From an uncultured Myxococcales bacterium (GTDB taxonomy: Bacteria; Myxococcota_A; UBA9042; DTJE01): a stretch of 64,000 nucleotides of DNA. The stretch is taken from positions 10,381 to 74,380 of the forward strand of contig CAIOFV010000069.1 of the NCBI GenBank assembly GCA_903857665.1, given 5' to 3'. The notes beneath the pieces were generated by a model that was not told the origin of the DNA, ran no database searches, and worked only from the letters and a program-made list of their open reading frames with translations. Shown here piece after piece: positions 21,387-64,000 of the stretch (position 1 is its first letter; each line of letters begins with the position of its first letter). Position numbers and translations under genes: made by a program.

Positions 21387-21535
21387 GGCCAGGATCTTCG
21401 GCGCTTGCCGGCGGGCCGTCAACGCACCGGCCCGTTCCGGCCGCACAGGCGCTGGAGATGGCCGCGAGCCCGTCGCGCGGGCCGCCCGCCCGGGCCTTCC
21501 GCGGTATCATCGTCGCGGGTGCGGTGGAGGACGCG

Positions 21536-23926: not shown

Positions 23927-24241
23927 TCTTGCCAAGGATTGCGGAAACCTAGCATGCGTCCGCGAAACGGGTCAAGGGACTTGCTGGGCCCCGGCGTCGA
24001 GCCGACGCGAAGCGGGCCGCAAAGTGCGACGAACCGGCTGCGCATCCTTTTCGCCCCTGGCCCCCTGATTGCCGAGGCTCCCCCCTCCCACGCCGCCGAG
24101 GAGCAGCGGAGAATCCCCTGATCCCCCGTCGCGCCACGCCCCTGGCGACACGCCATTTTTGCTGCAACAACGGAGGCTTCATGGTCTTCCGCCCCTCTGT
24201 CGCAGAAACCCGGGGAACATCCGCTCCGGGACAGGCATCAT

Positions 24242-24257
24242 TGGTACGCAAGTTGCA
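24242..24257 (+). promoter_or_regulatory. Candidate sigma54 (RpoN) -24/-12 promoter upstream of the giant lipoprotein gene
   Basis: TGGTAC-GCAAG-TTGCA matches the TGGCAC-N5-TTGCW consensus with one mismatch. It lies 160 nt upstream of the ATG at 24419, inside a 480-bp noncoding leader. Confidence 0.45.
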
Positions 24258-24418
24258 CCATCGGGCCTCGGCTCTCTTCCCCTCGGGCCGAGGTGCGCGC
24301 CCCGTTTGCGCATAACCGCCCGGAAGAGTTGGAAGGATCCGGGTTGGATCGGCCGTCCGGCGGTTTGGAGTGTGAAATGTTTGCGGGTTTGAGTGTCCGT
24401 AGCAGTCAAGGAGGCGCC

Positions 24419-33400: not shown

Positions 33401-33808
33401 ACGTCGGCGGACCTGGTGTTTGCGAGCGCCGGAGCCGTCGCCGCTCCCCCGGCGACCGCGAGCCTGACGGATCCGCGTTCCGAGCAGTTCGTCGTCGGGG
33501 AGGGTTCCCCGGTGGGCCGCGTGGTCGGTGCGTCGGACATCATCGACCTCGGCTTCGCCGCGTCGGCGGTGATCCCGGTGCAGTGCTACGACCTGAACAA
33601 GATCAACACGGGCATCAAGGGGCCGACGGAAACCGACATCAATTGCGGCGGCGCGATCTGCCCACCCTGCGACACGGGCAAGAAGTGCATCATGGACAGC
33701 GACTGCAAGACCGGCCTCTGCGACCCCACGGACGGCCTGTGCCATCTGTGCGGCGGCAGCAACCCCTGCCACGCCCCGAAGTCGTGCAGCGCAGGCTTCT
33801 GCGGATAG
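24419..33808 (+). CDS. Giant secreted lipoprotein (3129 aa): N-terminal lamin-tail domain, many myxobacterial Cys-rich repeats, at least three proprotein-convertase P-like domains, and a Cys-rich C-terminus
   Basis: Lipobox LAQGC; lamin-tail-domain motif (LVINEFSVYSASGRQWIEIYN...GWTV); repeated CxDDxNxCTxDxC modules; P-domain-like segments (GDVQLSLTSPSGTEVRL, LGDLFMTLKDPQGY); AGGAGG ribosome-binding site. Confidence 0.85.
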   Translation: MKLRSRHLGTLVLVCAAFALAQGCSSSSDEKDVATDPGLGSQDTAADLGLDLGLDVGLDTGLDVPDSPTATPDTGSSAASRRQSAATQACTQPVNDLVINEFSVYSASGRQWIEIYNPTALAIDLKGWTVGNGTSSFTIPVTVNIAATGYALLCSDGDAACSWGPWDTGFALATANASITLQNKVPATVNSIDYSSNTIPATGGTIELKNAYKDNATLFNQDGSLNASFSLSTAALGTPGVKNDNWVVVEDPTCSDDGNICTFQVCEKSVCTYVPDMTCCQSNSDCQSNTDFCLVPFCNVNAHKCENGRKANCCTQNSDCNDNIACTTDYCLFNQCQFTLGPDCCIVDSDCPSKGFCSATRCGTVTANHCTTTTIPAPACCTSPTDCKDDNPCTFDNCDGSAHKCVFKQIPNCCLKDTDCNDGNPCTLDTCVINACRPIWQTEQCCYDDPQCAAQDTNHKICTDDKCVLDSASGHYTCITPFKPDCALPLPYIQLFNNAQSFTGINWELIDYGTSTSRNWSFAYGFGDLGPDGHLMFNWSPTVINVKTVAVTPTLDASTAANDGFNSTKSTTLQWRMAYHHKNPGATIKIRVRISTLNDFSTPGNYKEVYVKDAIDDVPYALYSYQLPAPEKDAQNLRVGFMLDTGTSLAGTASMDSLEVDDVKVASGVPSRLWKYRLVRCTGTEAEGCDNENHYVAVDELDEQQIKDGQVPSLTAGVCDWYRVYMCMYDQDGSQTTWNFFGFPSSYIDGPPMDQPSFIQAPYPWGENTGCSTFPQTVQGICNSPLTGPGYYVCALDIKPDCCNPTAPADCAVKAAGAYLPALVTKDEDDPGKQLHSPFETQTKFAVTLLIQDGYLVWSPNGRNDPAANAIANTIMTTRDPRDNNNFRKAQIVVNLNLLSDADLARFRGVFAVLGVSGNNHVVSVTEAATLKRYMDQGGRMYLEGGDFFYTSTRPGAQFKTVLHDLFNIDSTSGGLPVLDGPIAGRNFLDGYSFDYVSGSPHFNSYLDRLVHRAASGSREIMRNAGTTAFATAISFESTPATQSAPFYRTIGSSILFGGLVEQTGHTTLVNLMSRYLDFLEVGYPDCLTAANCQDDEACTSDTCLPANAENHRLCGYSLPAGMLTCTPCKNDVEVKVGNASVCGLNEACNVALGYCVPIPFQTRFDAETGTATGCGDFFGDADAHPEAPASSSCTATVTTSGILEGIQVKAKIPHLYRGDVQLSLTSPSGTEVRLKPANPLDAAPNIYATYDVGVPSDQPLSKYLGERLLGAWTLKALDTSPTFAGGTIQEWHLYTRQRAVSCTTIADCGDDPCAANVTCEDTTVPPDGVKECKYQPLCDDSNVCTLDVCTPGTHMVGGTAVPNTAMATGSCAYNTIPGANCSCTKHDDCLADQACLNLAQTATCAGEVDCRCAPVPGTPHELSLPSPLPIPDNDAVTGVTRSLTMTGTSPISIVKIRIAVNHPAVEDLRARVCHLSTCVTLRNVRHKGLIGGVDMEAAGFHDVYDFDAVDGPGTLQDFRRLAVAGAWTVTLFDVVPGNTGTLRRFNIYTQEAECFSDSDCSDNNACSTDTCRATPSGAGICLHTFKVCPMPALLPGISADCVQTPQCVAATGVCPTSTTLTFKDIGTACEDGLFCTANDTCDATGHCLAGGARDCSGVSGACTEGWCDPALSETTHQCQIRNRADGFACNDGEACNGADSCLAGVCKSGTDWICPCQVDANCVDDGNLCNGDTWFCNASKLCQLDLVNHPAKQDSCLSTGPCQKRTCEPATGLCKDTFALANYFPCDDNRYCTLGDYCLSGVCMGGDLRDCSTMALPDGMSETCGTRQCVGTLPDSGCQFVPEASTKPCDTNSLGCDLEHCSNGACINTDCGPFDNCTIVGGKATRDCTSYVDDCNTAACQELGGGLAACKRTAKGDGTTCTPDAVDCTTDTCQAGICKHDRPATCPGKICGGRHPYDAGDDMCGLQDSCVHPALSPVDQQNGLCTTTCDPAQDCQSFASGLVDLPIIDWARVGTCATSSIVIPAGYPFTYVKSLQAKVRLSHSYLGDLFMTLKDPQGYTHPIWNMIGGANDGFADTFELSFNVPNRVNDPGTFTDGRDIAGAPMCSFQGELARGSTGTWTLEVCDYGLTNSGVLHDWTLAVQGTNSNANLNSGHRCEDAIDLTPVSIGPDPLVWPVATDSTKCGINVLYNSGYGKTEGPERWYKMVLDKATRVKVTLNQPIRDLALILKGGPSASCATAPVVGGSNAYLPINHQPEYFNLPLQAGTYFLAIDTVSDPVLPSLDLISSRLAVMDNLFNYGPYIFDISMELLRENGNTCGNSESCLSNYCDGKFCCDNSLGTNPTCCPGAFPADGESWTLGAGAIPVETSLFESAKTVCGVTALAVCHSNQPGFLPCEGRRVFPNCSVGHDCFEDVSNEARDDTACTPPVVVNGALTGGVTAYHCGYYDDVFCDAGLLQTPVTCKTECASDADCKHTPVYPGQYNHCEETNPVTHKMECVPDRDKGERCGSAHECISEFCGVNNLCCIPGKVCCPSPDPLNGPFTNGAVCPDTFLGITLRDWTTKTCSTQTECIGQRTDPFCSAIKECVPKYPRDDCGCQDVKRNCTLVNVFYDAPECFADAEKTTYCADVPIVAGIERHGPTAPDCFTNCLVTSNHVVGPLGGVVDCSTDIEPVCNDTGTNGLETGFHCLPDNPSCCCQDDSKCIYLAHCAPVSGALSWKQKSCDGPIPNGGMCNRGPDCVNKNWLPAPYSGKNGGYCNHNVCCNGGNCCLTDSVPGMSTFCAAQPADCNDPLNCHGRFFTNTCNPPPTGYDIHNQDLVDPLLWDNWNERGSLFTCTENIVSEDDTQCTGVTSNTCPNYFASYVCKGSGADDHPSPAVLNLGDPDNRCRTDCNKALCVKGTTSCLLCYGVPGDDPNCCPPDNPACCCEDNSACNPAVGHCDPNPANQTISVCAANGVFNDPCNENSDCGTGLLCLLHYCCTSARLTECKGYQVTSADLVFASAGAVAAPPATASLTDPRSEQFVVGEGSPVGRVVGASDIIDLGFAASAVIPVQCYDLNKINTGIKGPTETDINCGGAICPPCDTGKKCIMDSDCKTGLCDPTDGLCHLCGGSNPCHAPKSCSAGFCG
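24557..24610 (+). repeat. Tandem 12-bp coding repeat (ctcgggctcgac x about 4.5) encoding (GLD)n
   Basis: Direct reading of the sequence. The repeat encodes DLGLDLGLDVGLDTGLDV in the N-terminal linker of the giant lipoprotein. Confidence 0.6.
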
Positions 33809-34021: not shown

Positions 34022-35119
34022 TCAGGAAGCCTGGGTGGGTTCCTTCCGTCGCATCTTCAAGGGCACGTAGTTGCAGAAGGGTTCCTCGTCCAGGACGTCG
34101 CCCGTCATCGCGTAGGCCCGGGCCCGGCAACCGCCGCACACGCGCTTGAACTCGCAGACGCCGCAGCGACCGTGATAGCCCTCGAAATCGCGCATGGACT
34201 TCAGCAGCGGCGAATCCTCCCAGATCGTGCGGAAGGGCTGTTCGAGGACGTTTCCGGCCACCTGCTCCATGTACGAACAGGGCCGCACATTCCCGAAGGC
34301 GTCGATCAGGCAGATCGTCTGTCCGGCGACGCAACCTTTCCCGGCACCGGTGCTGAACGTCAGGTCCCGGCGCTTGAAGCGGGAACCGTCCCGGGCCGAC
34401 AGTTGGGGAACCACGCGGTAGTAGTGCGGCGCGCAGGTGGGCCGCATCAGGATGTCCTTCTCGCGCTTCTCCTGTTCGTAGTGCCATTCGAGGATCATGT
34501 CGTAGTGCTCGGGATCGATCAGTTCCTCGAACAGTTCCTTCCCGCGCCCGGTGGGGACGATCATGAACATGTACCACGCCGTTGCGCCCAGGTCCTTGGC
34601 CACCCGGAAGGTGTCCCCGATGTACGGCTGGTTGCGCCGGGTGAAGGAGGAGTTGATCAGGAACGGGATCCCGTGCTCCTTGAACAGGTGCGCGGCGCGA
34701 ACCGTGCCCTCGAAGGCGCCAGGCATGCGGCGGAAGTCGTCGTGGATCGCGGCATTCGGCCCGTCCAGCGACAGGGACACCATGCGGATCCCCGCCGCCT
34801 TCATCTGGAGGCAGACCTCGTCGGTGACCAGCACACCGTTGGTCGCCATGCACATCCGGAACCCCTTCGAGGTCCCATAGGTGGCCAGTTCGAAGACATC
34901 CTTGCGCATCAGGGGCTCGCCGCCGGACAGCACCAGCACCGGCTTCACGAAGGACGCGATGTCATCGATCAGCGCCAGGCCCTTTTCGGTGGTGAACGCC
35001 CCTTCGGGCGAGGATCCGTCGGACGAGCACCGGCAATGGACGCAGTTCAGGTTGCAGCGCTGCGTCGTTTCCCACGCGATCCACTTCGGCAGGAACTGGC
35101 TTTCGGACGTCAATGCCAT
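34022..35119 (-). CDS. Radical SAM / SPASM-domain protein (AhbD/NirJ/PqqE-like)
   Basis: [14 protein letters not shown] carries the CxxxCxxC radical-SAM motif. The C-terminal Cys cluster (CxxCxxxxxCxxxC...CGGC) is typical of a SPASM domain. AGGAGG ribosome-binding site. Confidence 0.8.
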
Positions 35120-35277
35120 GGGAGCCTCCTGGCGGCATTGTGTTCGGCCGCGGCTGTTGGGTCAAGCGAACGGCCAAACGACGGCGCAACCGTTGCGGGC
35201 GAGGGTGGAGAGGGGGGGCAGGTTGACGAGGCGACGCGGAATCGTGTAGGGATGGACCGGGAGAGCGGAGAGTCGCG

Positions 35278-42020: not shown

Positions 42021-43922
42021 ATGGGGGTTCGGGACACAGTCCAGGGAAGGCCGGAAATCCTGGCCCCCGGCGGAAGCCTCGAGGCCATCGAGGTCGCCGC
42101 GGGCCACGGCGCGGACGCGGTGTATGCCGGCATCGGGACCCTCAACGCGCGCGCCCGGTCCGCCAACCTCACCGAAGCCCAACTGCCCGGGGTGATCGAC
42201 TTCCTTCATGGTTCGGGCACGAGGCTGTATGTCCCCATCAATGTGCCGCTGCGACCCGAAGACCGCGAGGAAACGGCGCGCGTGCTGGCCCTGTGCGAAG
42301 CCGGCGGCGTCGATGCGGTGATCCTGCGGGACCCGGCGTTGATGCGGCTGTGCCGCGACCGGTTCCCCGCCCTCGCGATCCACGCCAGCACCCAGGCCGG
42401 CGTCCATTCCGTCGAAACCGCCCGGCGGGCGGCCGAACTGGGCTGCCGACGGGTGATCCTGGCCCGTGAATGCAGCCGCGACGACATCGCCCGGATCCGC
42501 GACGCCCTGCCGGACCTCGAGGTGGAGGTCTTCGTCTTCGGCGCGCAGTGCTTCGCGGTGTCGGGGCTGTGCCTGCTGGGCGAGGCGACCACCGGCCGCT
42601 CCGGGAACTACGGCGCGTGCTCGCAGGCCTGCCGGCTGCCGTACACGGACGAGTCCGGCCGGAACGTCGGGCATCCCTTCAGCATGAAGGACCTGGACCT
42701 GGTCGGGGACGTGCAGGCCCTGGTGGACCTGGGCGTGGCGGCGCTGAAGATCGAGGGCCGCATGAAGTCGCCCGCGTGGGTCGGATGCGTGGTTTCGTGG
42801 CTGCGAAAGGCCGTGGACCGGCCGATCCCCGGCCTGTCGTCGGAGGAGCTGGACGCGTTCCACCGCGACGTGTCGGTGCTGTTTTCGAGGCCTCGGACCG
42901 GCGGGTTCTTCCACGGGCGCACGGACGCCGCCGATCAGATCGACGTCGATGCGCCCGGCCACCGGGGATGCGACGTGGGCGACGTGAGGACGCGATCGAC
43001 GCCCGAGGGCCAGATCCTGTGCTTCCGGACGCCCGTGGACCTGAACATCCGGGACGGGTTGCTGCTGGAGCTCTCCCCCGAGCGCGGAGGCAGAGGCGAC
43101 GGGTTTGCCAAGGAAACGCTCGCCGGAGGCGGAGCCGCCTCGGGTGCCTCCAGAACCCATGCCCCGGAAGCACCGGGCGGCATCGAGTTCGTGCCGCTGG
43201 GCATCCGGGAGCTGTTCGACGAGCAGCGTCGCCCCGCGATGCGGCTGCCCGCCGGGAGGAACGTGGAAATCCCAGTCGATGTCCGTCGGCCCGTCGCCCG
43301 GGTCGCAATCCACTCGTCCGACGGCGTCCGGGTCCGCTACGACCGCGTCGATCGCCGCGTGCCGGGAACGGTCGTCGAGGGCCACCCCCCAACACCGCGG
43401 TTCGAGGCGGTCGAGATCCGGGCCGACCGGATCCGGGCCACCCTGTCCCGGGGGCGCGTGCGCCGCGTGCTGGAACTGCCCGTCGCGTCCCAGCCCGCCC
43501 GGGGCGAGGGCCTGTCGTGTTCCCGGCTGCAGAAGCATTTCGGCGACGCAGCCTACGACCTGGATCCGGGCCTGTTCGTGAACCCGTCGGACCTGAAGCA
43601 GGTGCGGCGGGCGATGGAGGCGTCCTTCGAGGCCGAAGTGGCGGCATCCGTGGCCGCGAAGGCCCGCGAGGCCATCGAAGCGCTGGTCGCGGATCCGCAG
43701 CCGCCGCCGCGGACCGACGCCGAACTGCTGGCGAAGGGCCCTGCCGCGATCAGCCGCGTGACGGGCATGGGAGGCAGGATCATCGTCGCCCCGAACGGGA
43801 CCCGGTTCGAACTGGTGCCGACGGCCACGGGCACGACGGTGCGCCTGGCGAGCGCTGGATTCCGCAAGCCCGACGCCCCTCCCGACGGCCCCGATGCGGA
43901 TCCCGCAGAATCGCCCGATTGA
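42021..43922 (+). CDS. Peptidase U32 family protein, long form (RlhA/YdcP-like, about 633 aa)
   Basis: U32 core (VDAVILRDPAL, ALKIEGRMKSP and conserved Cys residues) followed by a C-terminal extension of about 250 aa. AGGAGA ribosome-binding site. Confidence 0.75.
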   Translation: MGVRDTVQGRPEILAPGGSLEAIEVAAGHGADAVYAGIGTLNARARSANLTEAQLPGVIDFLHGSGTRLYVPINVPLRPEDREETARVLALCEAGGVDAVILRDPALMRLCRDRFPALAIHASTQAGVHSVETARRAAELGCRRVILARECSRDDIARIRDALPDLEVEVFVFGAQCFAVSGLCLLGEATTGRSGNYGACSQACRLPYTDESGRNVGHPFSMKDLDLVGDVQALVDLGVAALKIEGRMKSPAWVGCVVSWLRKAVDRPIPGLSSEELDAFHRDVSVLFSRPRTGGFFHGRTDAADQIDVDAPGHRGCDVGDVRTRSTPEGQILCFRTPVDLNIRDGLLLELSPERGGRGDGFAKETLAGGGAASGASRTHAPEAPGGIEFVPLGIRELFDEQRRPAMRLPAGRNVEIPVDVRRPVARVAIHSSDGVRVRYDRVDRRVPGTVVEGHPPTPRFEAVEIRADRIRATLSRGRVRRVLELPVASQPARGEGLSCSRLQKHFGDAAYDLDPGLFVNPSDLKQVRRAMEASFEAEVAASVAAKAREAIEALVADPQPPPRTDAELLAKGPAAISRVTGMGGRIIVAPNGTRFELVPTATGTTVRLASAGFRKPDAPPDGPDADPAESPD

Positions 43923-55300: not shown

Positions 55301-55397
55301 CCGGAAGATGCTGGAGTCGCCAGAGGCGGGCAAGGCAGCGGGCCCGTCCCCGCCCGAAGGGTCCGACCCGGCGGGGATCACTGCGCGCAGGGAATGA
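52371..55397 (+). CDS. Hybrid sensor histidine kinase / response regulator with a periplasmic solute-binding (SBP_bac_3-like) sensor domain and two PAS domains
   Basis: Signal peptide, periplasmic domain of about 250 aa, transmembrane segment, PAS x2, HisKA (GGIAHDFNNQL), HATPase (GLGLAIVYGIV) and a C-terminal receiver domain (LLFVEDD...ISGY). Confidence 0.85.
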   Translation: MALGIPARRRQGSTPWHLPVAAASLLLTLALPIPVRGSEDPSASASSAIREPTEPAAPSTTRRTVLYGGDRDFYPYEWLDEGGTPHGFNIDLVNALADVLGFEPRFELDQWDRIRNGIEVERRIDLSDMYASESRAQVVDIAEPVAVVWEQAWVRRGGPRIKGLEDLRGLRILVHRAGYIDQFLGNWDPTQTLIPVDSEMLGLRELARGHGDCALATQWVGQQLVSGRPEFIDLMPAGPPMLPRPYGLVVRKGDEAFLADINRGMGILRTSGRLAELRDRWLEQPEPSGPGVRFISENLRALLAGISLLLAIGLGVTLALSRKVRRQARRLRAELDERRQAEVALEQSREQFRLAFQNSPAVMGISDLETGKYLDVNLAFQSVLGFSRDEVIGRTSLDLNLWFDPGDRESMRQVVERDGTVRNLQIVLRTRAGDLRSFLFIADLITLNGRTCLVTNALDISERAQMEKALRDSEERWKFALEGAGEGVWDWDVPSNRIFASRRYKEILGYPDEAFDLDPVPWRARIHPDDVDRMEQDFTAYSKGRTPLFQTEVRMICRDGTFRRVSVRGRTVARDAQNHPKRVIGTILDVTDQHRAEEERASLEDQLRQSQKMEVVGQLAGGIAHDFNNQLMVIRGYSDLLQNQGLDARSQALLNEVVLASDRAAALTGRLLAFSRKQVRRLSVFNLNNVLTEMSGALGMMLGESVAISVEAAANLGFVRADRDQLEQVIANIAVNARDAMPGGGRLTIRTRNIVLDQEYVRHHVGVKTGPHVLLSFQDSGVGMGEDVAARIFEPFFTTKQEGLGSGLGLAIVYGIVKQSNGHVTVDSEPGRGSTFKVFLPRVEDVPTESRAPSRIAVDRAKPATLLFVEDDTNLFSLLRGILESAGYEVLASPMPDQALALAARHAGPIDLLISDVVMPGMSGPVLAEHLRKTRPGIRLLFISGYPKDVLERQTVLPADIQLLGKPFSPRELIATIRKMLESPEAGKAAGPSPPEGSDPAGITARRE

Positions 55398-58300
55398 TGT
55401 TCTTCAAGTAGGTCAACGTCTTGCCGGTCGCATCCACCGTCACGATGTCCGGGCATCCATTCCCGTCCAGGTCCGCGACGATCATCTGCTGGGGATTCAC
55501 CCCGGTGGCGAAGTCGTAGGGCGTGCTGAAGTTCCTGGAACCCAGGTTCAGGTAGATCGAAACCGTGGAATCCTGCGAGTTCAATACCAAGATATCGATG
55601 TTCCCATCGTGGTTCATGTCCGCCAGGGCGAGGTCCACCGGCCCGTGGCCCTTGTGCCCCAGCGAGACAGGCGGCTCGAAGGACAGGAGGTCCGGATTGG
55701 ACGGGACCAGCGCGGCGTCGCTGCTGTTGTAGGAAATGACGACGTCCTGGTCCAGCAGCGTCGCGACGTCGGGCAGCGCCTTGGCCGCCTGATCGGGCGG
55801 CAGGCTGCCGTCCACCGGCACCGCCAGGAAGGCCACGGCGAGCAACTTCGGGTTCGCGCCCACGGCGAAATGCTTGAAGGTGTTGGCCAGGTAGCCCGGG
55901 ACCGCGGAACTCGCGTAGACGGTAAAGTCCCCGGTCGATGCGTCCGGGGACAGAACGTCGTACGGAGTTCGCTGGCCGACGTTCTTGATGATCCACTTGT
56001 AGAGTGAAAGACGCAGGGGAGCCGCGACCAGCTCACGCTGGGAACGTGTCGAGTCCACGGTTTCCCCCTTCGTCGTGGCTTGCGCGCTGATCTTCGTCGT
56101 GAACGAGCCATCGTTCTGGTTGATGAACGGCTTGATCTGGACGAACCTTCCCGGATTTGATCCCGTCACGTTGAACGTCGCGATCGTCACCAGGTCCGGC
56201 CGCCAGGGATCCGAGGCGGAACGGGAGGAGAAGTCCCCCAGCGCCACCAGGTTCGGGGAATCCCCCCAGTCATTCGCGATCGGCGTAGCCGCGATCTTCG
56301 TGTGACTGACCCCGTCCTCCTTCAGCAGGAAGACCTGGCCCGTGATCCGGGTGCCCGTCGTCGGTCCCGTGGCCGCCGCGGCAACCACCAGATCGTCCAG
56401 GCCGGTGTTGGTGCCGGAACCCGGGTCCAGGTTCGCGGCCAGCAACTTGCGAGGGGAGGCGACATCGACATTGAGGGTGGGGTTCGCCAGGGTCAGCGCC
56501 ATTCCGGTCGTGATTTCCGCCGTGAACACGGAAATGACGTTCTTGTTGCTCTGGGTGCCCAGGACGGCCAGGTCCAGGAGCCGGGTCTTTTCGGCCGTGA
56601 GCGGCCGCGAGAAGCGGCCGGCCGCGATCGAGATCGGGGCCAGGTTGAGGCCGACCATCGGGGCGCCGGAAAACGCGAGCTTCCCGCTGTTCTTCAGCCA
56701 TGTCAAAGACTTGCCATCAGAAGACAGCGTGACGACGTCCAGCACCCCGTCGTCGTCCACGTCCGCGAGGGTCATGTCCAGGGCGGACCCGACGAGAAAG
56801 GACGGGCCCGACACGAGGAACGTGGTGCCGCTGGTTGGAATGCTGCCGGAAAAGACGTGGACCAGGTTTCCGCCCTTGCACAACACCGCGATATCGGTGA
56901 CACCGTCGCCGTCCAGGTCGCCGGCCACGATCCGTGCCGGCTGGACGCCCGCGGGCAGGGTGAGGAAGCCGTTGAGAGCCGTCGATGACCCCGAGCTTTC
57001 GGCCCGGAACAGCGAGATCCGGTCCCGCTCGCCATCGCCGAACGCGAGCAGGGTCTGAGGACGCGTGGAACCCAACGTGAACGTGGTGGCAGTGAGGATC
57101 CTCGACAGCGCCGCGCCGTCCAGGATGGTCGTGAGCGAACTGTTGAGGCCCGCCGACAACAGGCCCTTGGAGTCCGCGACGAAGCGCGTCACGGTGGACG
57201 ATCCGCTCGGTGCAACAACGACGGCGCTTTCGCGAGCGTCGCCCACGCCGGTCAGGTCGCCGAACTGGCCGATCGCGATGAACCGGGGGTCCTGGGCGCC
57301 GCCGTACTGCTTCAGCGGCCCCCACGTGAACGTGTTGGTTGCAGTGATGAAGCTGGACAAGACCACACCGACGGTCTGGGACGTTTCGGCCAGCGCCAGG
57401 GCCATGTCCAGCCTTCCGTCGCCGTTCAGATCGCCCAGCGCCAGCGCCGTCACGCTGGTCGGCACCGTCACGACGACCGGCTTGGCGAAGGTCGAGCCGG
57501 CGGTCTGAAGGAACAGGTTCAGGTTGTGCCCGGTACCGGTCGCGGGATTGCAGACCGCCACCACGTCGTCGAGGCCGTCCCCGTCCAGGTCCTGGACCAC
57601 CAGGTTCCCGCAGGCGGTCTTCAGCAGGTCCTGCTTCTTGACCAGCTTCTCGGTGGCGGCATCCCGGGTGAAGATCGACAGTCCCGACGCGGCGGAAACC
57701 ACCACTGCGCCGGTATTGTCCGACGCCAGCCCCAGGTGGATGCCCGCAATGGCCGAGCCGACGACGTCGGTCGGAAGCGCGTACACCGTGCCGCCCTGGA
57801 AGCGCGGGACCTGGGAATACGAGAAGTTCAACACGAACGAACCGTTGTGGTCCGGGATGCCGTCGGTGGAGGTGACGGTCAGAACCTTGTCGCCGGCCGT
57901 CCACGAACCGCTCGGGATCACGATCTCCCCTGTATCCACCTTCACTGCCCCGGCCTTGGTGCTGCCGGTCGGCCAGTCCCAGACGAATCCCAGGTCCTGC
58001 TGGGTGGTTGCATCACTGACGCGGATGTGGATTTCCGAAACACCGGCACCCGCGTCCTTGACCACGAACTGCACCTTGAGGTCCCCCAGGATGCTGCCGA
58101 GCTCGACGGGGGTCGAGCCGGCGGGAGTGATGATGGGACCGCTGTTGTCCACGGTGATCAGGACCTGGTCCGTGGCTTCGGTCGCGTCGGAATCCCGGGT
58201 CGCCGTCACCTTCACGGTCCACTTGCGGCCGTCCGGGATCAGGCTCGTGTCCACTTCGATGTTCGTCGCCTGGGCAAAGGGCAGTTTCAGTTCGACCGGC

Positions 58301-58599
58301 GTGAACGCGCCGGCCTTCAGCACCTCGACCCGCAGCGTGACGGGCGTCTTCAGGTCGTCGGTGACGAGGATCCCCAGTTCCAGCTTGCCGGACACGGGGG
58401 TGGTGACACCCTGCGCGGGACTGGTGATCGTCACGTTGAGGCCGACGGGAGCCACCTCGGCCCCCTCGGTTTCGTCGAGCACGTCGCAGTCGATGCAGTA
58501 ATCCGGCTGCGTGGTCTTGGCCTTCGAACAGCCGAAGGCCCCCAGGGCGACCAGCATCGCGACAAGGGGAAGGGCGTTGGAACCATTTCGACGGAACAT
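55378..58599 (-). CDS. Large FG-GAP/VCBS-repeat lipoprotein (1074 aa)
   Basis: Lipobox LGAFGC. Multiple GDLDGDGxxD / DxDxDG integrin-alpha-type repeats. GGGAGG ribosome-binding site before the ATG at 58597-58599. Confidence 0.7.
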   Translation of the reverse strand: MFRRNGSNALPLVAMLVALGAFGCSKAKTTQPDYCIDCDVLDETEGAEVAPVGLNVTITSPAQGVTTPVSGKLELGILVTDDLKTPVTLRVEVLKAGAFTPVELKLPFAQATNIEVDTSLIPDGRKWTVKVTATRDSDATEATDQVLITVDNSGPIITPAGSTPVELGSILGDLKVQFVVKDAGAGVSEIHIRVSDATTQQDLGFVWDWPTGSTKAGAVKVDTGEIVIPSGSWTAGDKVLTVTSTDGIPDHNGSFVLNFSYSQVPRFQGGTVYALPTDVVGSAIAGIHLGLASDNTGAVVVSAASGLSIFTRDAATEKLVKKQDLLKTACGNLVVQDLDGDGLDDVVAVCNPATGTGHNLNLFLQTAGSTFAKPVVVTVPTSVTALALGDLNGDGRLDMALALAETSQTVGVVLSSFITATNTFTWGPLKQYGGAQDPRFIAIGQFGDLTGVGDARESAVVVAPSGSSTVTRFVADSKGLLSAGLNSSLTTILDGAALSRILTATTFTLGSTRPQTLLAFGDGERDRISLFRAESSGSSTALNGFLTLPAGVQPARIVAGDLDGDGVTDIAVLCKGGNLVHVFSGSIPTSGTTFLVSGPSFLVGSALDMTLADVDDDGVLDVVTLSSDGKSLTWLKNSGKLAFSGAPMVGLNLAPISIAAGRFSRPLTAEKTRLLDLAVLGTQSNKNVISVFTAEITTGMALTLANPTLNVDVASPRKLLAANLDPGSGTNTGLDDLVVAAAATGPTTGTRITGQVFLLKEDGVSHTKIAATPIANDWGDSPNLVALGDFSSRSASDPWRPDLVTIATFNVTGSNPGRFVQIKPFINQNDGSFTTKISAQATTKGETVDSTRSQRELVAAPLRLSLYKWIIKNVGQRTPYDVLSPDASTGDFTVYASSAVPGYLANTFKHFAVGANPKLLAVAFLAVPVDGSLPPDQAAKALPDVATLLDQDVVISYNSSDAALVPSNPDLLSFEPPVSLGHKGHGPVDLALADMNHDGNIDILVLNSQDSTVSIYLNLGSRNFSTPYDFATGVNPQQMIVADLDGNGCPDIVTVDATGKTLTYLKNIIPCAQ

Positions 58600-58629
58600 C
58601 CGGGGCCTCCCCGCACTCTGGGCGCATAC

Positions 58630-58658
58630 ATTCTTGCGGAAGGGAGGGGGATCGTCAA
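58630..58658 (-). promoter_or_regulatory. Possible sigma70-like promoter for the FG-GAP lipoprotein gene
   Basis: On the minus strand: TTGACG - 17 nt - AAGAAT, about 30 nt upstream of the ATG. Confidence 0.25.
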
Positions 58659-58723
58659 GAAATCGGCCGCTGTGGCGGACGAGGCGCATTCCCGGGGGTG
58701 GCCCGCCCGGGTGGTTCCGGCCG

Positions 58724-59014
58724 TCAGTCGGCACCTGGGGTGGACGAGCCGTCGATGACCTGGACGACGGCCGCGTCAACCAGCACGTCACGGCTGCCCG
58801 GCGACTCGGCGTTGCGGGCGCCGCTGCCGAACGCCACCACCACCGTGTCGCCCTGCCCGGCATCGAGGAGGTCCGTGGCCACCACGACCCGCCCCGTCGG
58901 TCGCTCGCCGTCGGACGTCACGCAGGTTTCGGCGACCAGCAGCAGCTTCCTGCCCGCGAGGCGCGGGGCCTTCTTCGTGGCCCAGACCTCCCCCATCACC
59001 CGGCCGCGAATCAC
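58724..59014 (-). CDS. EutN/CcmL/PduN-family protein (bacterial microcompartment vertex, BMC-P), paralog 3
   Basis: N-terminus (V/M)IRGRVMGEVWATKK, with ...DAGQGDTVVVAFGSGAR...DAAVVQVIDG collinear with CcmL/EutN. The GTG start at 59014 overlaps the upstream stop (GTGA). 97 aa. Confidence 0.75.
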   Translation of the reverse strand: MIRGRVMGEVWATKKAPRLAGRKLLLVAETCVTSDGERPTGRVVVATDLLDAGQGDTVVVAFGSGARNAESPGSRDVLVDAAVVQVIDGSSTPGAD

Positions 59015-59433
59015 GTCAGTGCTCCTGCTCCCCCCGAGCGCGCAGGCGCCGGCGACGGGTTTCCGGCGGAAACTCTCGCCGAAGACGAAGCCGACTCGGG
59101 GACATTCAATAGACTTTCCGGCGCGTGCCCCGGCGCGAAGGCGAAGGCCGGCCCGCCGGCGTCCCGGAGGACCTCGACGCCATCGACGATCGCCGCGATG
59201 GACGCCTCCACCGGGGTCCGGGTGTCCCCCAGCGCAAGGCGCGCCGGCAGGCCCATGCAAACCACCACGTCCTGCCCGACCTCCGCGCCCACCGGGTCCA
59301 CGCAGACCAGGTGGTCCGAAGGATGATCGGGGTCGTACCACGCCAGCGGCTGCACCAGCAACAGCTTCTGTCCGTCCAGGCGAGGGCTGTGCCGGGTCGC
59401 CCAGCACTGGCCGATGACGCGTCCCAGGATCAC
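59011..59433 (-). CDS. EutN/CcmL-family protein, paralog 2, with a C-terminal extension of about 50 aa
   Basis: MILGRVIGQCWATRH...VGAEVGQDVVVCMG...ASIAAIVDGVEV. GTG start with an AGGGGGA ribosome-binding site. The tail is encoded partly by repeat element A. Confidence 0.7.
   Translation of the reverse strand: MILGRVIGQCWATRHSPRLDGQKLLLVQPLAWYDPDHPSDHLVCVDPVGAEVGQDVVVCMGLPARLALGDTRTPVEASIAAIVDGVEVLRDAGGPAFAFAPGHAPESLLNVPESASSSARVSAGNPSPAPARSGGAGALT
59030..59107 (-). repeat. Copy A of the 78-nt structured repeat element (minus sense)
   Basis: CCCCGAG...CTCGGGG terminal inverted repeats and an internal GGCGAG-AGTTTCC / GGAAAC-CCGTCGCC hairpin. About 80% identical to copies B and C. Confidence 0.6.
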
Positions 59434-59762
59434 GGCGCCGTCCCCCTGGCCGTGGCCTCGACCACCGCCTCGTCCACGATCGCGATCACGCAGGCCTTGG
59501 TGGTCGCCTCGGGCCCGATCACCAGGTCGCGCACCCGGCTTCCGACACCGATCAGCACCAGTTGCCCCACGTCAGCCCCCAGCGGGTCCAGGGCCAGCAT
59601 CGACGACTGCCGGAGGTGCCCGTCGTCGCAATCCGCGGAGAACCGGGTCCCGTCACGCGCCATCGCCAGCCCCAGAGGGCGGACCTCGACGACCCGGCGG
59701 CCGTTCATGCCGTCGGATTGGTTCGCGCCCCACACGGTGCCGACCACGCGGGCGAGCTTCAT
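59430..59762 (-). CDS. EutN/CcmL-family protein, paralog 1
   Basis: MKLARVVGTVWGANQ...VGADVGQLVLIGVGSRVRDL...ACVIAIVDE. ATGA overlap with the upstream gene. 110 aa. Confidence 0.8.
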   Translation of the reverse strand: MKLARVVGTVWGANQSDGMNGRRVVEVRPLGLAMARDGTRFSADCDDGHLRQSSMLALDPLGADVGQLVLIGVGSRVRDLVIGPEATTKACVIAIVDEAVVEATARGTAP

Positions 59763-60274
59763 TTCTTCGAGTTCCTTTCCTGGATCAGCCGGGCCAGGGC
59801 CGCGGCCTCCTCGTTGACGATCTCGGCGGCATACGAATAGATGACGCGCTCGGCCACGGCACCGATGATGAACACCTGGACCTTCAGTTCGCCCGACAGG
59901 ATGCGGCGGGTCCGGCCCGGCCCGGCGGACTCGAACTGCATGTCGCCGTGGTTTTTCAGGAGTTCCGCCACCTTATGGGTTGTCGGCACGTTGACGTACG
60001 TCGCGGTGCCGCGCACCAGGTCCAGTTTGGATTCCTCGACCCATTCCATCCACCGGGGCTCGATCTTCTTGGGACCCACCGAATGGATCTTCGGAACGGG
60101 CATGTACCGGACCTTGCGCACGATCCGGCCGGGTTCCTCGGCCCACGAAAGCGTTTCGGCTTCCTGGACGTGTGTCATCCTCGGTTTGAGGACCTCGATC
60201 ACCCCCTTTTCGAACATGATCTTCATCAGGGTGTCGCGGTCGCAGGCGAACTCGTGCTCGAAGCGGTACTTCAT
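59759..60274 (-). CDS. Hypothetical protein, possibly SRPBCC/DUF2505-like (171 aa); first gene of the EutN-paralog operon
   Basis: The ATG at 60272-60274 follows a GGAGG ribosome-binding site. N-terminus MKYRFEHEFACDRDTLMKIMFEKG. Confidence 0.45.
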   Translation of the reverse strand: MKYRFEHEFACDRDTLMKIMFEKGVIEVLKPRMTHVQEAETLSWAEEPGRIVRKVRYMPVPKIHSVGPKKIEPRWMEWVEESKLDLVRGTATYVNVPTTHKVAELLKNHGDMQFESAGPGRTRRILSGELKVQVFIIGAVAERVIYSYAAEIVNEEAAALARLIQERNSKK

Positions 60275-60381
60275 GGCAGGACCTCCGTTGCCCCCGGCCG
60301 CCTTGTCCGACCGGCCCGGGCATGATACCGTTGGGGTGGTCCCGATGGCAATCCCCGCTCCGGCGCGAGCGGGCGCCGTAT

Positions 60382-60459
60382 CTCCCCGAGGGCGTATTCG
60401 CAGGCGACGGGTTCCCGTAGGAAACTCTCGCCGGAACCGAAGCCGACTGGGGGGCATCC
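60382..60459 (-). repeat. Copy B of the 78-nt structured repeat element (minus sense)
   Basis: Same architecture as copy A. Lies in the intergenic region between the SRPBCC-like gene and rluB. Confidence 0.6.
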
Positions 60460-60498
60460 GTGATGGGCGTCCTGTCGCGGACCCCGGAGGAACAACCC

Positions 60499-62304
60499 AT
60501 GATTCGTCTGCAACGCTACCTCGTCGAGGGCGGCAAACTGTCCAGGCGCGAGGCCGAGGAACGGATCGCCCAGGGGCGCGTCACCGTCAACGGGACGGTC
60601 GCCGAGCTTGGCACGATGATCGACCCGGACAACGACCGCATCAAACTGGACATGGAAACGGTCCGTCCGACGCGGCATCACATCGTGCTGGTGATGCACA
60701 AGCCCAAGGGGGTGGTCTGCAGCGAAAAGGACCCCGAGGGGCGCCGCAACGCCAACTCGCTGCTGCCGGACCTGCCCGTCCGGGTCCATACCATCGGCCG
60801 CCTGGACATCATGAGCGAAGGCCTTCTGCTGTTCACCAACGACGGCGACCTGACCCGGCAATTGACGCAGTCGGGCAGCGGCGTCGAACGGGTGTACGAG
60901 GTCAAGATCCAGGGCGGCGTTCCCGCCTGGGCGATGGAACGCATCGAGCGCGGCGTGAACCTGGAGGACGGGCGGGCGAAGGCGGCGTCGTGCAAGCGCC
61001 TGCGGCTGGCCCGGACCAACGAGTGGCTCGAGGTCGTGATGACCGAGGGCCGGTATCGCGAAGTGCGACGCATGTTCCAGACGCTCGGCATGAACGTGCT
61101 GAAGTTGAAGCGCGTGCGGTTCGGGCCGATCCGCCTGGGCAAGCTGCCGGCAGGGGCATCGCGGATCCTGACGCCGGACGAAGTCACGGCGCTGACCGAG
61201 AACCGGCCGCCGAAGCCCGTGCGACCCCCGAAGAACCAGCGGGCGGCACGAGGGACACGGTCGTCACGGGCCGGAGTGCCCGAGCGGCAGGGCAAGCCCG
61301 CCGGGGCCGAGAAGCCGGAACGGACGGAAAAGGCCGGGACGACCCGGTCGCCCGACCGCCCGGCGCGCACCGGTCGGACGGCGCGACCGACGGTGCCAGC
61401 GGCTCCGTCCGAGCGGTCCCAGTTGCCGGGGCACGCGACCCCGCCCGAACCCGGGTTCAGGGGCGTGCGTGGCACGCGTCCGGCACGTCCGGCGCGGCCC
61501 GAAGCCACGGAGCGTCGGCCCCGGACGTTGCACGGCGGGACCGCGCCGATGCGCGGGAGGCCCGAGACGGCTCGCGGAAGGTCGGATGCCGAACGTGGGC
61601 GGCCGGACGCCTCGCGGGGGAGGCCCGAGGCGCCACGCGGCCGGCCGGAAGCGACACGCGGTCGGCCTGCCGCGGCACAGGGGAGGCCGGAACTCGAGCG
61701 ACGCCCGCCACGGGAGCCGGCGCGCAGGTTCGATGCGGGTCGGGATTCGGGTGATGAGGACTACGTGGGCGACAGCGGCGCGGCCGCACGGCGCTTCGAA
61801 GCCGAAGTGGCGGATGCCGTCCGGAAGGCTGCGGCCCTGAAGGGGGCCCGTCCCGCGACACGGATCGACGGAACCGGCCAGGGCGCCCCGGATCGGGGCC
61901 ATGCTGCGAGCACGGGGGCACCGCGAGCGACGTCCGACCGAGGCGCCGGCCGAGGCCCGGGTCGCGGCGGACGCACCGGCGGATCCGGCTCACGACCCGG
62001 CTCGGCGGCTCGTCCCTCGCGGCCCGAAGGTCGCCCGGACAGAACCGGCTCTGCCGCCCGTCCCTCGCGGCCCGAAGGTCGCCCGGACAGATCCGCCGCA
62101 CCTGCCCGTCCATCGCGGCCCGCAGGCCGTTTGGAGCGGTCCGAAGCCTCTGCCGAGCGCCCCGCACGCACCGGGCGCCCCGCGCACCACGGCGGACGGC
62201 CGGCCAAGACGTCGCGCTCCCCCGCGAAGCCCGTCGCCCGGCCGAAGAAGCCTTCCGGCAAGCCGCAGCGCTCCCTGCACGCCAACAAGCCTCAGAAGGT
62301 GTAG
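60499..62304 (+). CDS. rluB: 23S rRNA pseudouridine synthase RluB-like, with an Arg/Pro-rich low-complexity C-terminal tail of about 370 aa
   Basis: S4 domain (RLQRYLVEGGKLSRREAEERI) and a PseudoU_synth_2 core (VHTIGRLDIMSEGLLLFTNDG with the catalytic Asp). GGAGG ribosome-binding site. The tail carries tandem peptide repeats. Confidence 0.8.
   Translation: MIRLQRYLVEGGKLSRREAEERIAQGRVTVNGTVAELGTMIDPDNDRIKLDMETVRPTRHHIVLVMHKPKGVVCSEKDPEGRRNANSLLPDLPVRVHTIGRLDIMSEGLLLFTNDGDLTRQLTQSGSGVERVYEVKIQGGVPAWAMERIERGVNLEDGRAKAASCKRLRLARTNEWLEVVMTEGRYREVRRMFQTLGMNVLKLKRVRFGPIRLGKLPAGASRILTPDEVTALTENRPPKPVRPPKNQRAARGTRSSRAGVPERQGKPAGAEKPERTEKAGTTRSPDRPARTGRTARPTVPAAPSERSQLPGHATPPEPGFRGVRGTRPARPARPEATERRPRTLHGGTAPMRGRPETARGRSDAERGRPDASRGRPEAPRGRPEATRGRPAAAQGRPELERRPPREPARRFDAGRDSGDEDYVGDSGAAARRFEAEVADAVRKAAALKGARPATRIDGTGQGAPDRGHAASTGAPRATSDRGAGRGPGRGGRTGGSGSRPGSAARPSRPEGRPDRTGSAARPSRPEGRPDRSAAPARPSRPAGRLERSEASAERPARTGRPAHHGGRPAKTSRSPAKPVARPKKPSGKPQRSLHANKPQKV
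61985..62140 (+). repeat. Tandem coding repeat of about 51 bp (about 3 units) in the rluB tail
   Basis: GCCCGTCCCTCGCGGCCCGAAGGTCGCCCGGACAGA.. is iterated, encoding SAARPSRPEGRPDR(T/S)G units. Confidence 0.5.
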
Positions 62305-64000
62305 AGCACCCCGAAGTGGATGTTGCCGACCTCTTCGCGGGCCGAGCACTTCCCCGTGGTTGAATCCACGCTCTTGCACCTGCGGTCCAGGATGATCCCG
62401 TAGTCGAGGCGGATCGGCACCACGCCGCCCAGCAGGTAGCGCAGGCCCACGCCGACCGAGTGGCGCAGCGACTTCGCGTGCAGGTCGGTCGGGCTTTCGG
62501 CCAGTGCGCCGACGTCATAGAACAGCGCGCCGTGGAGGTCGAGGCTGCGCAGGATCGGGAAGCGCAGTTCGAAGGTGCCCGACACCACCATGTCCCCGCT
62601 GTTGACCTTCGCGATCGTCGGGACCGTGACCGGCAGGCCGGTGCCAGGATCGACGTATACGGTGCCGTCCGCGTTCTTCTTCTGGCTGGTGGTCGTCTGC
62701 ACTCGCAAGCTGCCGTCGGAGTTGTACTGGGCCACCCCGTCGTTCGCGAACCCTCGCACCCCGCGGTTGCCGCCCAGCGAGTAGCGCTCCTCGGCGGGCA
62801 ACTGGCCCGCGCCGCCGAACGCCTTCGACCCGCCGTAGTGCGCGGTCAGGCCGATCGTGAGGAACTTCCGGATCGTCACGAAGCCCTTGAGGAGCACCTC
62901 GTACTTGAGGAAGTTCCCCTGGCTGAGCGCGTTGATGTACGCCAGCGAGACCTGTGCGAAGCCGCCGTTCTGCGGGTCGATCGGGTGATCCAGGCGGTCG
63001 TAGGTCAGCGTCGGGACGATCTTGTTTTCGTATCGCCACGACGAGTAGGTCGCATTCGGAATGCTGGGGTCGCGCGTCCGCACCACGCCGGTTTCCCAGG
63101 CCAGCGACCCGTACAGGTGCCTGACCAGCTCGCGAGACACGACGAACTCGGCCCCGAATTGCACCTGGTCGAGGCGCGAGGTGGCCCGGTCGTAGAGCGC
63201 GAACGGCGTCACGCGGAAGGAAAGGCCCTTGGAAAAGAAGTTGGGGTCCAGGTAGGTCGGGGCGAAGGACGCGTACCGGTCCCAGGCCGTGAACGACAGG
63301 CCGTACTTCACCGGCAGGTACAAGCGCTTCCCGCGACCCAGGAAGTTCTGGTCGACGTACCGGGCCTCGACCGTCAGGAGGATGTCCGGGAGGGGCAGGT
63401 CCAGCGTTCGGCCCGAACCCGACGTCGATACGTCCGAAAGGGCGATCGACGTCGACAGGCCGTCGGTGACGCCCTTGGGCAACGACGAATTCGGCCGGTC
63501 CCCGTTCAGCGTCTCGAAGCCGATCGCGAAGTCTACGAACTGGCTCTTCACCTCGCGGCACTCGACCACCAGCGCGACGCGGTCCCGCGGCGGGTCCTCG
63601 TCCGTGCCCAGGGCGGAAACCTGGACCGATGCGAAGATTCCGAGATTGTTCAGGAACCGCACGCCTTCGGCCACCCGCACCACGTCGTAGGGCTCACCGG
63701 GGCCGGGGAGGCGCGACGTGACGGTCTCGCGGATCGTGCGGTTGAGCCCCTGGACGAACACCGATCCGACCGTCGCCGGCGTTCCCTCGTCCACCGAGAT
63801 CCGCAGTGCGACGCTCCGGTCCGACACCTGTTCCAGGTCGCAGGAACCGTTGGATGCCCCCGAGGCGACTCCGTCTCCGGCGGGAGTTTCCTTCGGAAAC
63901 CCGCCGCCTGCGCCTGCGTGCTCGGGGGGGGGCACGTCCTCCGGGCCGCAGGCCACCTTCACCGAGGTCCGCAGGTAGCCCGCCGCCGCATACCACCGCG
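62292..64000 (-). CDS. bamA: Omp85-family outer-membrane protein assembly factor (BamA-like). The gene is partial: its N-terminus lies beyond the right edge of the window.
   Basis: C-terminal Bac_surface_Ag barrel (RYSLGGNRGVRGF, ALFYDVGAL, PIRLDYG, terminal ...GVLYTF) preceded by a POTRA domain. The frame stays open through position 64000. Confidence 0.8.
   Translation of the reverse strand, partial: RWYAAAGYLRTSVKVACGPEDVPPPEHAGAGGGFPKETPAGDGVASGASNGSCDLEQVSDRSVALRISVDEGTPATVGSVFVQGLNRTIRETVTSRLPGPGEPYDVVRVAEGVRFLNNLGIFASVQVSALGTDEDPPRDRVALVVECREVKSQFVDFAIGFETLNGDRPNSSLPKGVTDGLSTSIALSDVSTSGSGRTLDLPLPDILLTVEARYVDQNFLGRGKRLYLPVKYGLSFTAWDRYASFAPTYLDPNFFSKGLSFRVTPFALYDRATSRLDQVQFGAEFVVSRELVRHLYGSLAWETGVVRTRDPSIPNATYSSWRYENKIVPTLTYDRLDHPIDPQNGGFAQVSLAYINALSQGNFLKYEVLLKGFVTIRKFLTIGLTAHYGGSKAFGGAGQLPAEERYSLGGNRGVRGFANDGVAQYNSDGSLRVQTTTSQKKNADGTVYVDPGTGLPVTVPTIAKVNSGDMVVSGTFELRFPILRSLDLHGALFYDVGALAESPTDLHAKSLRHSVGVGLRYLLGGVVPIRLDYGIILDRRCKSVDSTTGKCSAREEVGNIHFGVLYTF
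63852..63930 (+). repeat. Copy C of the 78-nt structured repeat element (plus sense), inside the bamA reading frame
   Basis: GGATGCCCCCGAG...GGCGGGAGTTTCC-TTCG-GGAAACCCGCC...CTCGGGGGGG. The conserved stem has a UUCG loop. Confidence 0.6.

Follow-up and report, generated by a model that had tools for sequence, protein, structure and literature searches.

A putative satellite or fragmented-locus triplet of microcompartment vertex-protein genes in an uncultured Myxococcota bacterium

Within the 64-kb stretch of DNA that was analysed (the window), three consecutive minus-strand open reading frames encode proteins of the EutN/CcmL family (BMC-P), the vertex proteins of bacterial microcompartments (BMC). 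A sequence-only reading had assigned all three to PF03319, and a search with this profile bore the assignment out: each protein, here called paralog A, B or C, matched the full model (positions 1-83 of 83) with a score above the cut-off of 25 bits (Table 1). The start/stop overlaps that had been claimed as translational coupling can be read directly in the window sequence as ATGA between an upstream DUF2505/SRPBCC-like gene and A, GTGA between A and B, and GTGA between B and C. Downstream of C lies a gene for a protein with FG-GAP repeats, and all five proteins are called genes in public assemblies.

Table 1. Features of the vertex-protein locus (window coordinates).
Feature	Position	Strand	Evidence or remark
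FG-GAP/VCBS-repeat secreted protein, 1073 aa, signal peptide with Cys24	55378..58599	-	PF13517 126 bits
BMC-P paralog C, 96 aa	58724..59014	-	PF03319 75.4 bits; AF2 model
BMC-P paralog B, 140 aa	59011..59433	-	PF03319 80.8 bits; domain = residues 1-84
Palindromic repeat element, ~82 nt, at B/C junction	59029..59109		Hairpin; absent in L017-L019
BMC-P paralog A, 110 aa	59430..59762	-	PF03319 56.9 bits; position 1 of arrays
DUF2505/SRPBCC-family protein, 171 aa, first gene of unit	59759..60274	-	PF10698 24.7 bits; orthologs
Sigma-70-like promoter hexamers, ~50 nt upstream of DUF2505 gene	60322..60351	-	Consensus scan only

Sequence matches of A, B and C in the PDB were exclusively to BMC-P proteins. 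Paralog A, which carries an insertion of ~20 aa between strands, was closest to CcmL proteins, and paralog B to the Haliangium ochraceum (HO) shell BMC-P 5v74 (E 7e-13). Paralog C bears the signature motifs GRVVVA.D and FGSGARN; its AF2 model (pLDDT 87) has the BMC-P fold, a predicted five-stranded beta-barrel as in CcmL and EutN, and the best 47 Foldseek matches of this model against the PDB were all BMC-P pentamer proteins (TM ~0.7). EutN, PduN, CcmL and CsoS4A/B belong to the same Pfam family and share the fold; however, they are encoded singly or in pairs within operons that contain BMC-H and enzyme genes, whereas A, B and C stand alone. The canonical motifs GAGxGE and GSSAR are altered in a different way in each of the three; in strand 1, where VV is canonical, A and C have VW and B has CW. 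The strand-1 tryptophan (G.VW) was considered as a Myxococcota-specific mark and rejected, being widespread in other BMC-P representatives. In a blast matrix, A, B and C diverged from one another, and each had orthologs across species; the 100 homologs of paralog C were all found on Myxococcota-type metagenomic contigs. Purifying selection on the three paralogs and the DUF2505 gene is strong, with dN/dS values of 0.08-0.16 (0.16 for paralog A; 0.08 for the DUF2505 gene against L017). A, B and C are putative pentamer-forming, shell-capping proteins.

The GTGA overlap between B and C, together with the last 28 residues of B, exists because the palindromic repeat has inserted at this junction in the window species. 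In the related loci L017-L019 the repeat is absent from the junction; in relatives the two genes are separated by a stop codon, one nucleotide and GTG, and paralog B of close relatives is 112 aa long, ending in ...ESLQEH. The tail of the window paralog has a non-coding-like GC distribution over codon positions. Other copies of the repeat (hairpin dG -30 to -45 kcal/mol) lie at 60381-60457, 63858-63929 (inverted) and 43075-43144. The insertion left intact both the domain of B and the start codon and Shine-Dalgarno sequence of C.

The assignment of the upstream gene to DUF2505/SRPBCC is putative: the window protein itself falls just below the PF10698 cut-off of 26.9 bits, whereas 16 of its 17 orthologs match the profile (best E 4e-9). 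Every window-like locus, and L035 as well, keeps the gene upstream of A. A single-sequence structure model of the protein reached a pLDDT of 31, no homolog was found in HO main loci, and no riboswitch or other RNA family was found near the locus. The DUF2505 protein is a putative cargo or accessory protein. For the FG-GAP lipoprotein, the size (1073 aa rather than 1,074) and the distance from C (124 nt rather than 125) differ slightly from the earlier reading; its proposed place in the functional unit is unsupported. The protein is secreted, its gene evolves 3-6 times faster than the DUF2505, A, B and C genes (dN/dS 0.53 vs 0.08-0.16) and is preceded by its own promoter-like site at 58658-58630 (consensus scan), and it occurs only in window-like loci and is missing from more distant array loci. 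It is probably a conserved neighbour and not part of the functional unit.

The window genes belong to a wider pattern. An ordered paralog array, A-B-C and often also D, was found in 63 uncultured Myxococcota species (species-level genomes), and a blast matrix resolved A, B, C and D as separate orthologous groups that keep the same order. Judged by orthology, the window genes are positions 1-3 of this array, and the window layout recurs with intact reading frames and conserved order in ~20 species. The array is led either by the DUF2505/SRPBCC gene or, in Polyangia, by a protein "X" without a Pfam match. One candidate was discarded: for the MAG ADurb.Bin058, considered as an anaerobic-digester lineage with a window-like locus, the catalogued BMC-P lengths of 96 and 143 aa disagree with such a locus.

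Paralog D is, in most relatives, linked to a further pair of genes. The order D, then ACT, then DUF711 was observed at ~40 genome loci and ~70 metagenome loci. In 23 of the 29 distinct ACT proteins the N-terminus contains a helix resembling an encapsulation peptide, D.LR(R/E)L(V/I)A(E/R)V(T/S)R.V, and the N-terminal motif of the remainder gives weak matches to the EutQ N-terminus, TIGR02536 and PF15953; both assignments are based on similarity of motifs and on HMM matches below threshold. The EutQ N-terminus has been shown by experiment to link shell and cargo (PMC12487888). The window locus is without paralog D and ACT-DUF711. Stand-alone D-ACT-DUF711 loci could be paired with window-like loci (L107 with L033, L104 with L021, and L103-105 with the L006 group) by metagenome, GC and tetranucleotide composition, a pairing that is compositional, not physical. 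On these compositional grounds, lineages with the window layout appear to have D-ACT-DUF711 at a separate locus, and the window genome presumably carries such a locus elsewhere.

Genes for shell facets were sought throughout the window. A Pfam scan that covered nearly every other gene detected no PF00936 protein, aldehyde dehydrogenase or class II aldolase, and tblastn with three BMC-H queries against the 64 kb gave no match, although the same queries detected BMC-H in control loci (E 1e-28 to 1e-54); the claim that the window lacks a PF00936 shell gene and an aldehyde dehydrogenase is thereby confirmed. Likewise, no BMC-H, BMC-T or aldehyde dehydrogenase gene was found within 10 kb at 79 array loci and 80 ACT loci. 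A genome-level match came via the BMC-H protein P0198: in the Polyangia MAG SMAG_U9502 (WGS prefix DATFWX01), contig 73 bears an A-D array (L048) and contig 3 an HO-type main locus, T-H-P-AldDH-PduS-like (L080). This co-occurrence of array and BMC-H was seen in one MAG, of the four-paralog architecture, and MAG bins can be chimeric. The abundant BMC-H proteins P0130 and P0133 occurred only on unrelated metagenome and marine contigs.

Sets of this kind have precedents. A BMC-P triplet has been described as a combination of grey, orange and third-clade proteins (Sutter 2021, PMC8217296), and A, B and C are likewise three distinct co-occurring paralogs. Triplets, the triplet-only loci FRAG6/7, and FRAG4 are all described in the same study and its Supplementary Data 2 (PMC8217296). 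The window locus resembles FRAG6 and FRAG7 in that several distinct BMC-P proteins are encoded together, remote from BMC-H and recognisable enzymes. The wider Myxococcota family, with four paralogs and an ACT protein with an N-terminal extension, resembles FRAG4, which comprises four BMC-P and an ACT-domain protein whose N-terminus is BMC-specific (PMC8217296). In contrast to the FRAG sets, which occur in Hydrogenedentes, Marinimicrobia and similar phyla, the present array is found in Myxococcota, its paralogs are translationally coupled in a strictly fixed order, the leading gene encodes a DUF2505/SRPBCC protein or protein X, and DUF711 follows ACT. The type I system of H. ochraceum, with a main locus and a satellite containing two BMC-P and an aldolase, lies in the same phylum and also encodes vertex paralogs away from its single BMC-H; moreover, it is an HO-type main locus (T-H-P-AldDH) that accompanies the array in SMAG_U9502. 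The array differs from the HO satellite in having three (or four) paralogs rather than two, and no pfam00596 aldolase was found among the window Pfam matches beside its three BMC-P. Identity between paralogs A-D and the HO main-locus BMC-P is only ~30-45%, and the paralogs fall into groups of their own.

The sequence-only reading had offered two explanations, a satellite locus and a use of the EutN fold outside microcompartments, and had called either unusual. The latter judgement does not stand, since BMC-P triplets and triplet-only loci were already published (PMC8217296). We favour the satellite explanation because of the co-occurrence in one MAG of the array and an HO-type locus, the linkage to ACT-DUF711 with its targeting-like N-termini, and the published triplets. 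The window locus is thus likely to be a satellite or fragmented-locus vertex triplet tied to a shell encoded elsewhere, and it adds a further example to the described pattern of vertex triplets in fragmented gene sets, not a new type of system. According to this model, the three genes encode distinct BMC-P paralogs, the A, B and C members of a Myxococcota-specific array A-B-C-D that would be both ancient and ordered. They would be produced, along with the DUF2505/SRPBCC protein, at a constant ratio from a single, tightly coupled transcript. The array would have been split in the window lineage, A-B-C staying in place and D with ACT-DUF711 probably residing at a second locus. The BMC-H/BMC-T facet proteins and core enzymes would be encoded at further sites, as in the FRAG and HO gene sets, and A, B and C, as pentamers, would close the vertices of the shell built from these distant facet genes. 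The window genome presumably encodes BMC-H.

Alternatively, the EutN-fold paralogs could act independently of BMC-H, together with DUF2505 and perhaps ACT-DUF711, as a hexamer-free assembly or as OB-fold-like oligomeric scaffolds. This would accord with the lack of a visible PF00936 gene near 159 related loci and in the window, with conserved partners (DUF2505, protein X, ACT-DUF711) that are not classic metabolosome enzymes, and with the derivation of BMC-P from a generic OB fold (PMC5683377). However, one array-bearing MAG has a full HO-type locus, sequences like the encapsulation-peptide-like and EutQ-N-like extensions of the ACT partner bind hexameric shell proteins in studied systems, the dispersal of shell genes has been documented (PMC8217296), and the literature knows no BMC-P function beyond microcompartments. 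We consider this alternative unlikely, and judge it quite improbable that genomes with the window layout (DUF2505-A-B-C) lack any BMC-H or BMC-T and that the paralogs act outside any shell; if true, a fold now regarded as unique to microcompartments would for the first time have a role independent of them.

Given TamB and Omp85 neighbours, the DUF2505, EutN and FG-GAP proteins might instead serve a cell-surface or outer-membrane process. The order Omp85 - RluB - DUF2505 - A - B - C - FG-GAP is indeed conserved in ~20 window-like loci and no terminator-like site separates C from the FG-GAP gene, but this synteny is limited to one related clade and may reflect inheritance only. The EutN and DUF2505 proteins have no signal peptides whereas the FG-GAP protein is secreted, its gene differs in selection and promoter as described above, and all four-paralog loci lack it and have ACT-DUF711 instead; an envelope-related operon is thus very unlikely. 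Least credible of all is a decaying, functionless remnant of a lost microcompartment locus, as might be read from the missing D and ACT-DUF711 and the repeat in the end of B, because selection on A, B, C and the DUF2505 gene is strongly purifying, frames and order are preserved across the ~20 species, and the insertion spared the B domain and the initiation signals of C.

As regards the window, the main outcome is its annotation as a probable satellite or fragmented vertex-protein locus rather than an orphan system. In the wider family, the ACT protein with targeting-like N-termini, which is paired with DUF711, becomes a candidate cargo for the functionally enigmatic Haliangium-type and FRAG4-like compartments. 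A shell is capped by only 12 pentamers, and the reason why microcompartment-bearing bacteria retain at least three vertex paralogs is a recognised puzzle (PMC8217296; PMC11585597). The Myxococcota array offers an unusually clean case, with up to four paralogs (five with that of the main locus) in 63 species. Its fixed order, coupling and purifying selection argue for co-production at a fixed ratio, and therefore for distinct, non-redundant roles of the paralogs.

A DUF2505-like gene and three genes for EutN/CcmL vertex pentamer proteins (BMC-P), termed A, B and C, lie closely packed within the window. The sequence-only reading had called three consecutive EutN/CcmL paralogs here and proposed an HMM search as a check. 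In a Pfam search A, B and C scored 56.9, 80.8 and 75.4 bits against PF03319 (EutN_CcmL; gathering score 25), each spanning the entire 83-position model, confirming that the cluster had been read correctly. Their matches among PDB sequences were vertex proteins only: the Haliangium ochraceum (HO) shell pentamer 5v74 was closest to B (E 7e-13) and C (E 9e-12), and CcmL was closest to A. An AlphaFold model of C, built with a 58-sequence alignment as input, reached a pLDDT of 87, and its best 47 Foldseek matches in the PDB were all BMC-P proteins. The three ORFs encode 110, 140 and 96 aa; the stop of the leading 171-aa protein is shared with the start of A as an ATGA overlap, and GTGA overlaps follow between A, B and C, as previously described. 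The leader had been called SRPBCC/DUF2505-like, which holds for 16 of 17 orthologs (best E 4e-9), although the window protein itself scores slightly under the DUF2505 cut-off. The downstream FG-GAP repeat protein was also present, with a signal peptide, but is 1073 aa long and not 1,074. All five proteins are called genes in public assemblies (141,927-bp contig), identical copies occur in lake metagenomes labelled BUCK21, and the nearest species representative is 'uncultured Myxococcales bacterium Loclat_bin-06029'. The G+C content of the window is 69%. From this the DNA is assigned to an uncultured myxobacterium.

Features of the window (nucleotide positions) and of related loci (L-numbers)
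Feature	Location	Strand	Remarks
Four closely packed genes	58724-60274	minus	DUF2505-like, then A, B, C
Promoter-like hexamers	60351-60322		ahead of DUF2505 gene; sequence motif scan
Palindromic repeat, ~80 nt	59029-59109, 60381-60457, 63858-63929 (inverted), 43075-43144		REP/MITE-like hairpin; four copies in 64 kb
RluB-like pseudouridine synthase	60460-62304	plus	S4 + PseudoU_synth_2
Tandem repeats in RluB-like tail	61530-61697, 61994-62137		21-nt and 48-nt units
IcmF-like fusion	17991-21506	minus	1172 aa
Giant ORF	24122-33805	plus	3228 aa
Radical-SAM/SPASM enzyme	34025-35161	minus	adjoins giant ORF
B/C insertion, ~390 nt	L007:9537-10000, L008, L027, L182, L185-L187		truncates B tail; creates spurious 110-aa ORF
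Protein X, 110-160 aa	L013:7325-7810, L048:9021-9404, 41 other loci		conserved, no Pfam match (MSQISPLARVKEEFGGKDKLVD...)
A-B-C-D, then ACT, then DUF711 (PF05167)	L011-L016, L035-L078, L101-L180		related loci
Stand-alone D-ACT-DUF711	L103, L104, L105, L107, L110		G+C and tetranucleotides resemble window-type loci

Several other genes of the window were also noted. The RluB-like protein carries a ~310-aa C-terminal tail rich in Arg/Pro/Gly/Ala and made of tandem repeats (relatives are 300 to 601 aa long). The IcmF-like protein combines B12-binding, MeaB GTPase and methylmalonyl-CoA-mutase domains and is encoded 38 kb away from the BMC-P cluster, without evident link. The giant ORF has a lamin-tail domain together with proprotein-convertase P-domains.

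Essentially all remaining genes of the window were scanned against Pfam, and no PF00936 domain, aldehyde dehydrogenase or aldolase was detected. Likewise, tblastn with PduA, HO BMC-H and CcmK2 queries, which recovered BMC-H from control loci at E 1e-28 to 1e-54, gave no match to this shell facet protein in the window. The earlier claim that the 64 kb hold no shell hexamer gene or aldehyde dehydrogenase is therefore borne out, and the description 'orphan' is correct at this scale. None of 79 array loci had BMC-H within 10 kb. That the paralogs serve a role free of hexamers is a reading we regard as unlikely; the sequence-only reading had set such a use beside a satellite locus for a distant shell, and the satellite is the better supported of the two.

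The GTGA overlap between B and C proved to be species-specific. It is the product of an 82-nt copy of the palindromic repeat (folding energy dG -30 to -45 kcal/mol) inserted at the 3' end of the B frame, ~12 nt before the ancestral stop codon. The insertion supplies the last 28 residues of B, whose codon-position G+C resembles non-coding DNA; in relatives lacking it, B is 112 aa long and stops one nucleotide ahead of the GTG of C. Strains of another lineage, which is abundant, has 49% G+C and includes one MAG from an anaerobic-digester dataset, carry a different insertion of ~390 nt at this junction as well. The B/C junction appears to be a hot spot for insertions.

Scanning one genome per species identified 63 array loci, all in uncultured Myxococcota, and homologs of C were found only on Myxococcota-type contigs. 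All-against-all comparison separated A, B and C into three distinct orthologous groups of invariant order, with a fourth, D, at position 4 in many genomes. The window-type architecture (Omp85, RluB, DUF2505-A-B-C, FG-GAP) occurs in about 20 species; a commoner one (X, A-B-C-D, ACT-domain protein, DUF711) occurs in about 40, mostly Polyangia, where X adjoins A on its upstream side and occupies the place of the DUF2505 gene. Locus L035 is intermediate (RluB, DUF2505, A-B-C-D, ACT, DUF711). Compared with its nearest relative (dS about 0.5), the window shows dN/dS of 0.08-0.16 in the DUF2505 gene and in A, B and C, indicating that the array is functional; the value for FG-GAP is 0.53, so this gene is under a different evolutionary regime. 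An envelope operon formed together with the FG-GAP gene is very improbable, as localisation, evolutionary rate and restricted synteny speak against it; a decaying remnant, contradicted by purifying selection, deserves even less credence.

The usual UPF0237 ACT protein is 90 aa long, and the ACT protein encoded after D differs from it by an N-terminal extension. Among 29 distinct sequences, 23 have an extension whose first element is the amphipathic helix D.LR(R/E)L(V/I)A(E/R)V(T/S)R.V, and a linker with a CxxC motif often comes next; judged by motif, the helix is encapsulation-peptide-like, following the pattern of the classical examples. In the lineages nearest the window the extension begins MKK.ITE.D(I/L)...TPLA.DYASR.GI, a motif that weakly but consistently matches the EutQ N-terminus (E 0.008) and TIGR02536 (E 6e-5), and 9 of 11 sequences match PF15953 weakly (best E 9e-4). 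Bridging of shell and cargo by the EutQ N-terminus has been demonstrated experimentally (PMC12487888). We regard the ACT-DUF711 pair as candidate cargo of an enigmatic microcompartment in Myxococcota.

A metagenome scan with extended ACT proteins returned 80 loci, with D immediately 5' of ACT in 57. The full array was seen wherever the contig was long enough, apart from a split subset in which D-ACT-DUF711 stands alone and A-C are absent from at least 9.5 kb upstream. Stand-alone locus L107 and window-type locus L033 share a metagenome of origin and differ little in G+C (74.5% and 74.9%); each is the other's nearest tetranucleotide neighbour, with a two-fold margin. Stand-alone locus L104 pairs with the window-type locus L021, and L103/L105 with the window-type L006 group. 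This compositional pairing suggests that the array is distributed over two loci in the genomes of the five stand-alone loci, and the simplest reading is that window-layout lineages retain D-ACT-DUF711 at a second locus rather than having lost it. Co-occurrence of array and BMC-H at the genome level is based on one MAG, DATFWX01: contig 73 carries an A-D array (L048), and on contig 3 an HO-like search found BMC-H inside a classic HO-type main locus with BMC-T, BMC-P, aldehyde dehydrogenase and a PduS-like protein.

The 2021 microcompartment catalogue describes a recurrent 'BMC-P triplet', divided between main and satellite loci in HO loci of Deltaproteobacteria, and fragmented 'FRAG' types with shell genes at up to six places; FRAG6 and FRAG7 have the triplet on its own, and FRAG4 has four BMC-P and an ACT-domain protein with a BMC-specific N-terminal domain (PMC8217296). 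The window locus therefore fits a documented organisation, and a satellite here is not unusual in the way that had been supposed. It differs from the HO type I satellite, defined by two BMC-P and an aldolase, and the HO main-locus pentamer shares just about 30-45% identity with A-D. Why several BMC-P paralogs exist is stated to be unknown (PMC8217296; PMC11585597).

Domain identity, conservation and linkage of the genes are established, and we consider it probable that A, B and C are a satellite vertex triplet for a shell encoded elsewhere. One transcript would yield DUF2505, A, B and C by coupled translation, with the DUF2505 protein (a ligand-binding fold) acting as cargo or accessory protein. 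A, B and C would form homo- or heteromeric vertex pentamers that close a shell of BMC-T and BMC-H, the latter presumably encoded in the window's own genome, and a second locus would supply D and the ACT-DUF711 cargo. No paper connecting DUF711 with microcompartments was found in the literature searched, and three features appear to be undescribed so far: an ordered array of this kind across Myxococcota, the genes that lead it (DUF2505 or X), and the pairing of the ACT protein with DUF711. The value of the locus lies chiefly in this conserved ordered array and in the ACT-DUF711 lead from related loci.
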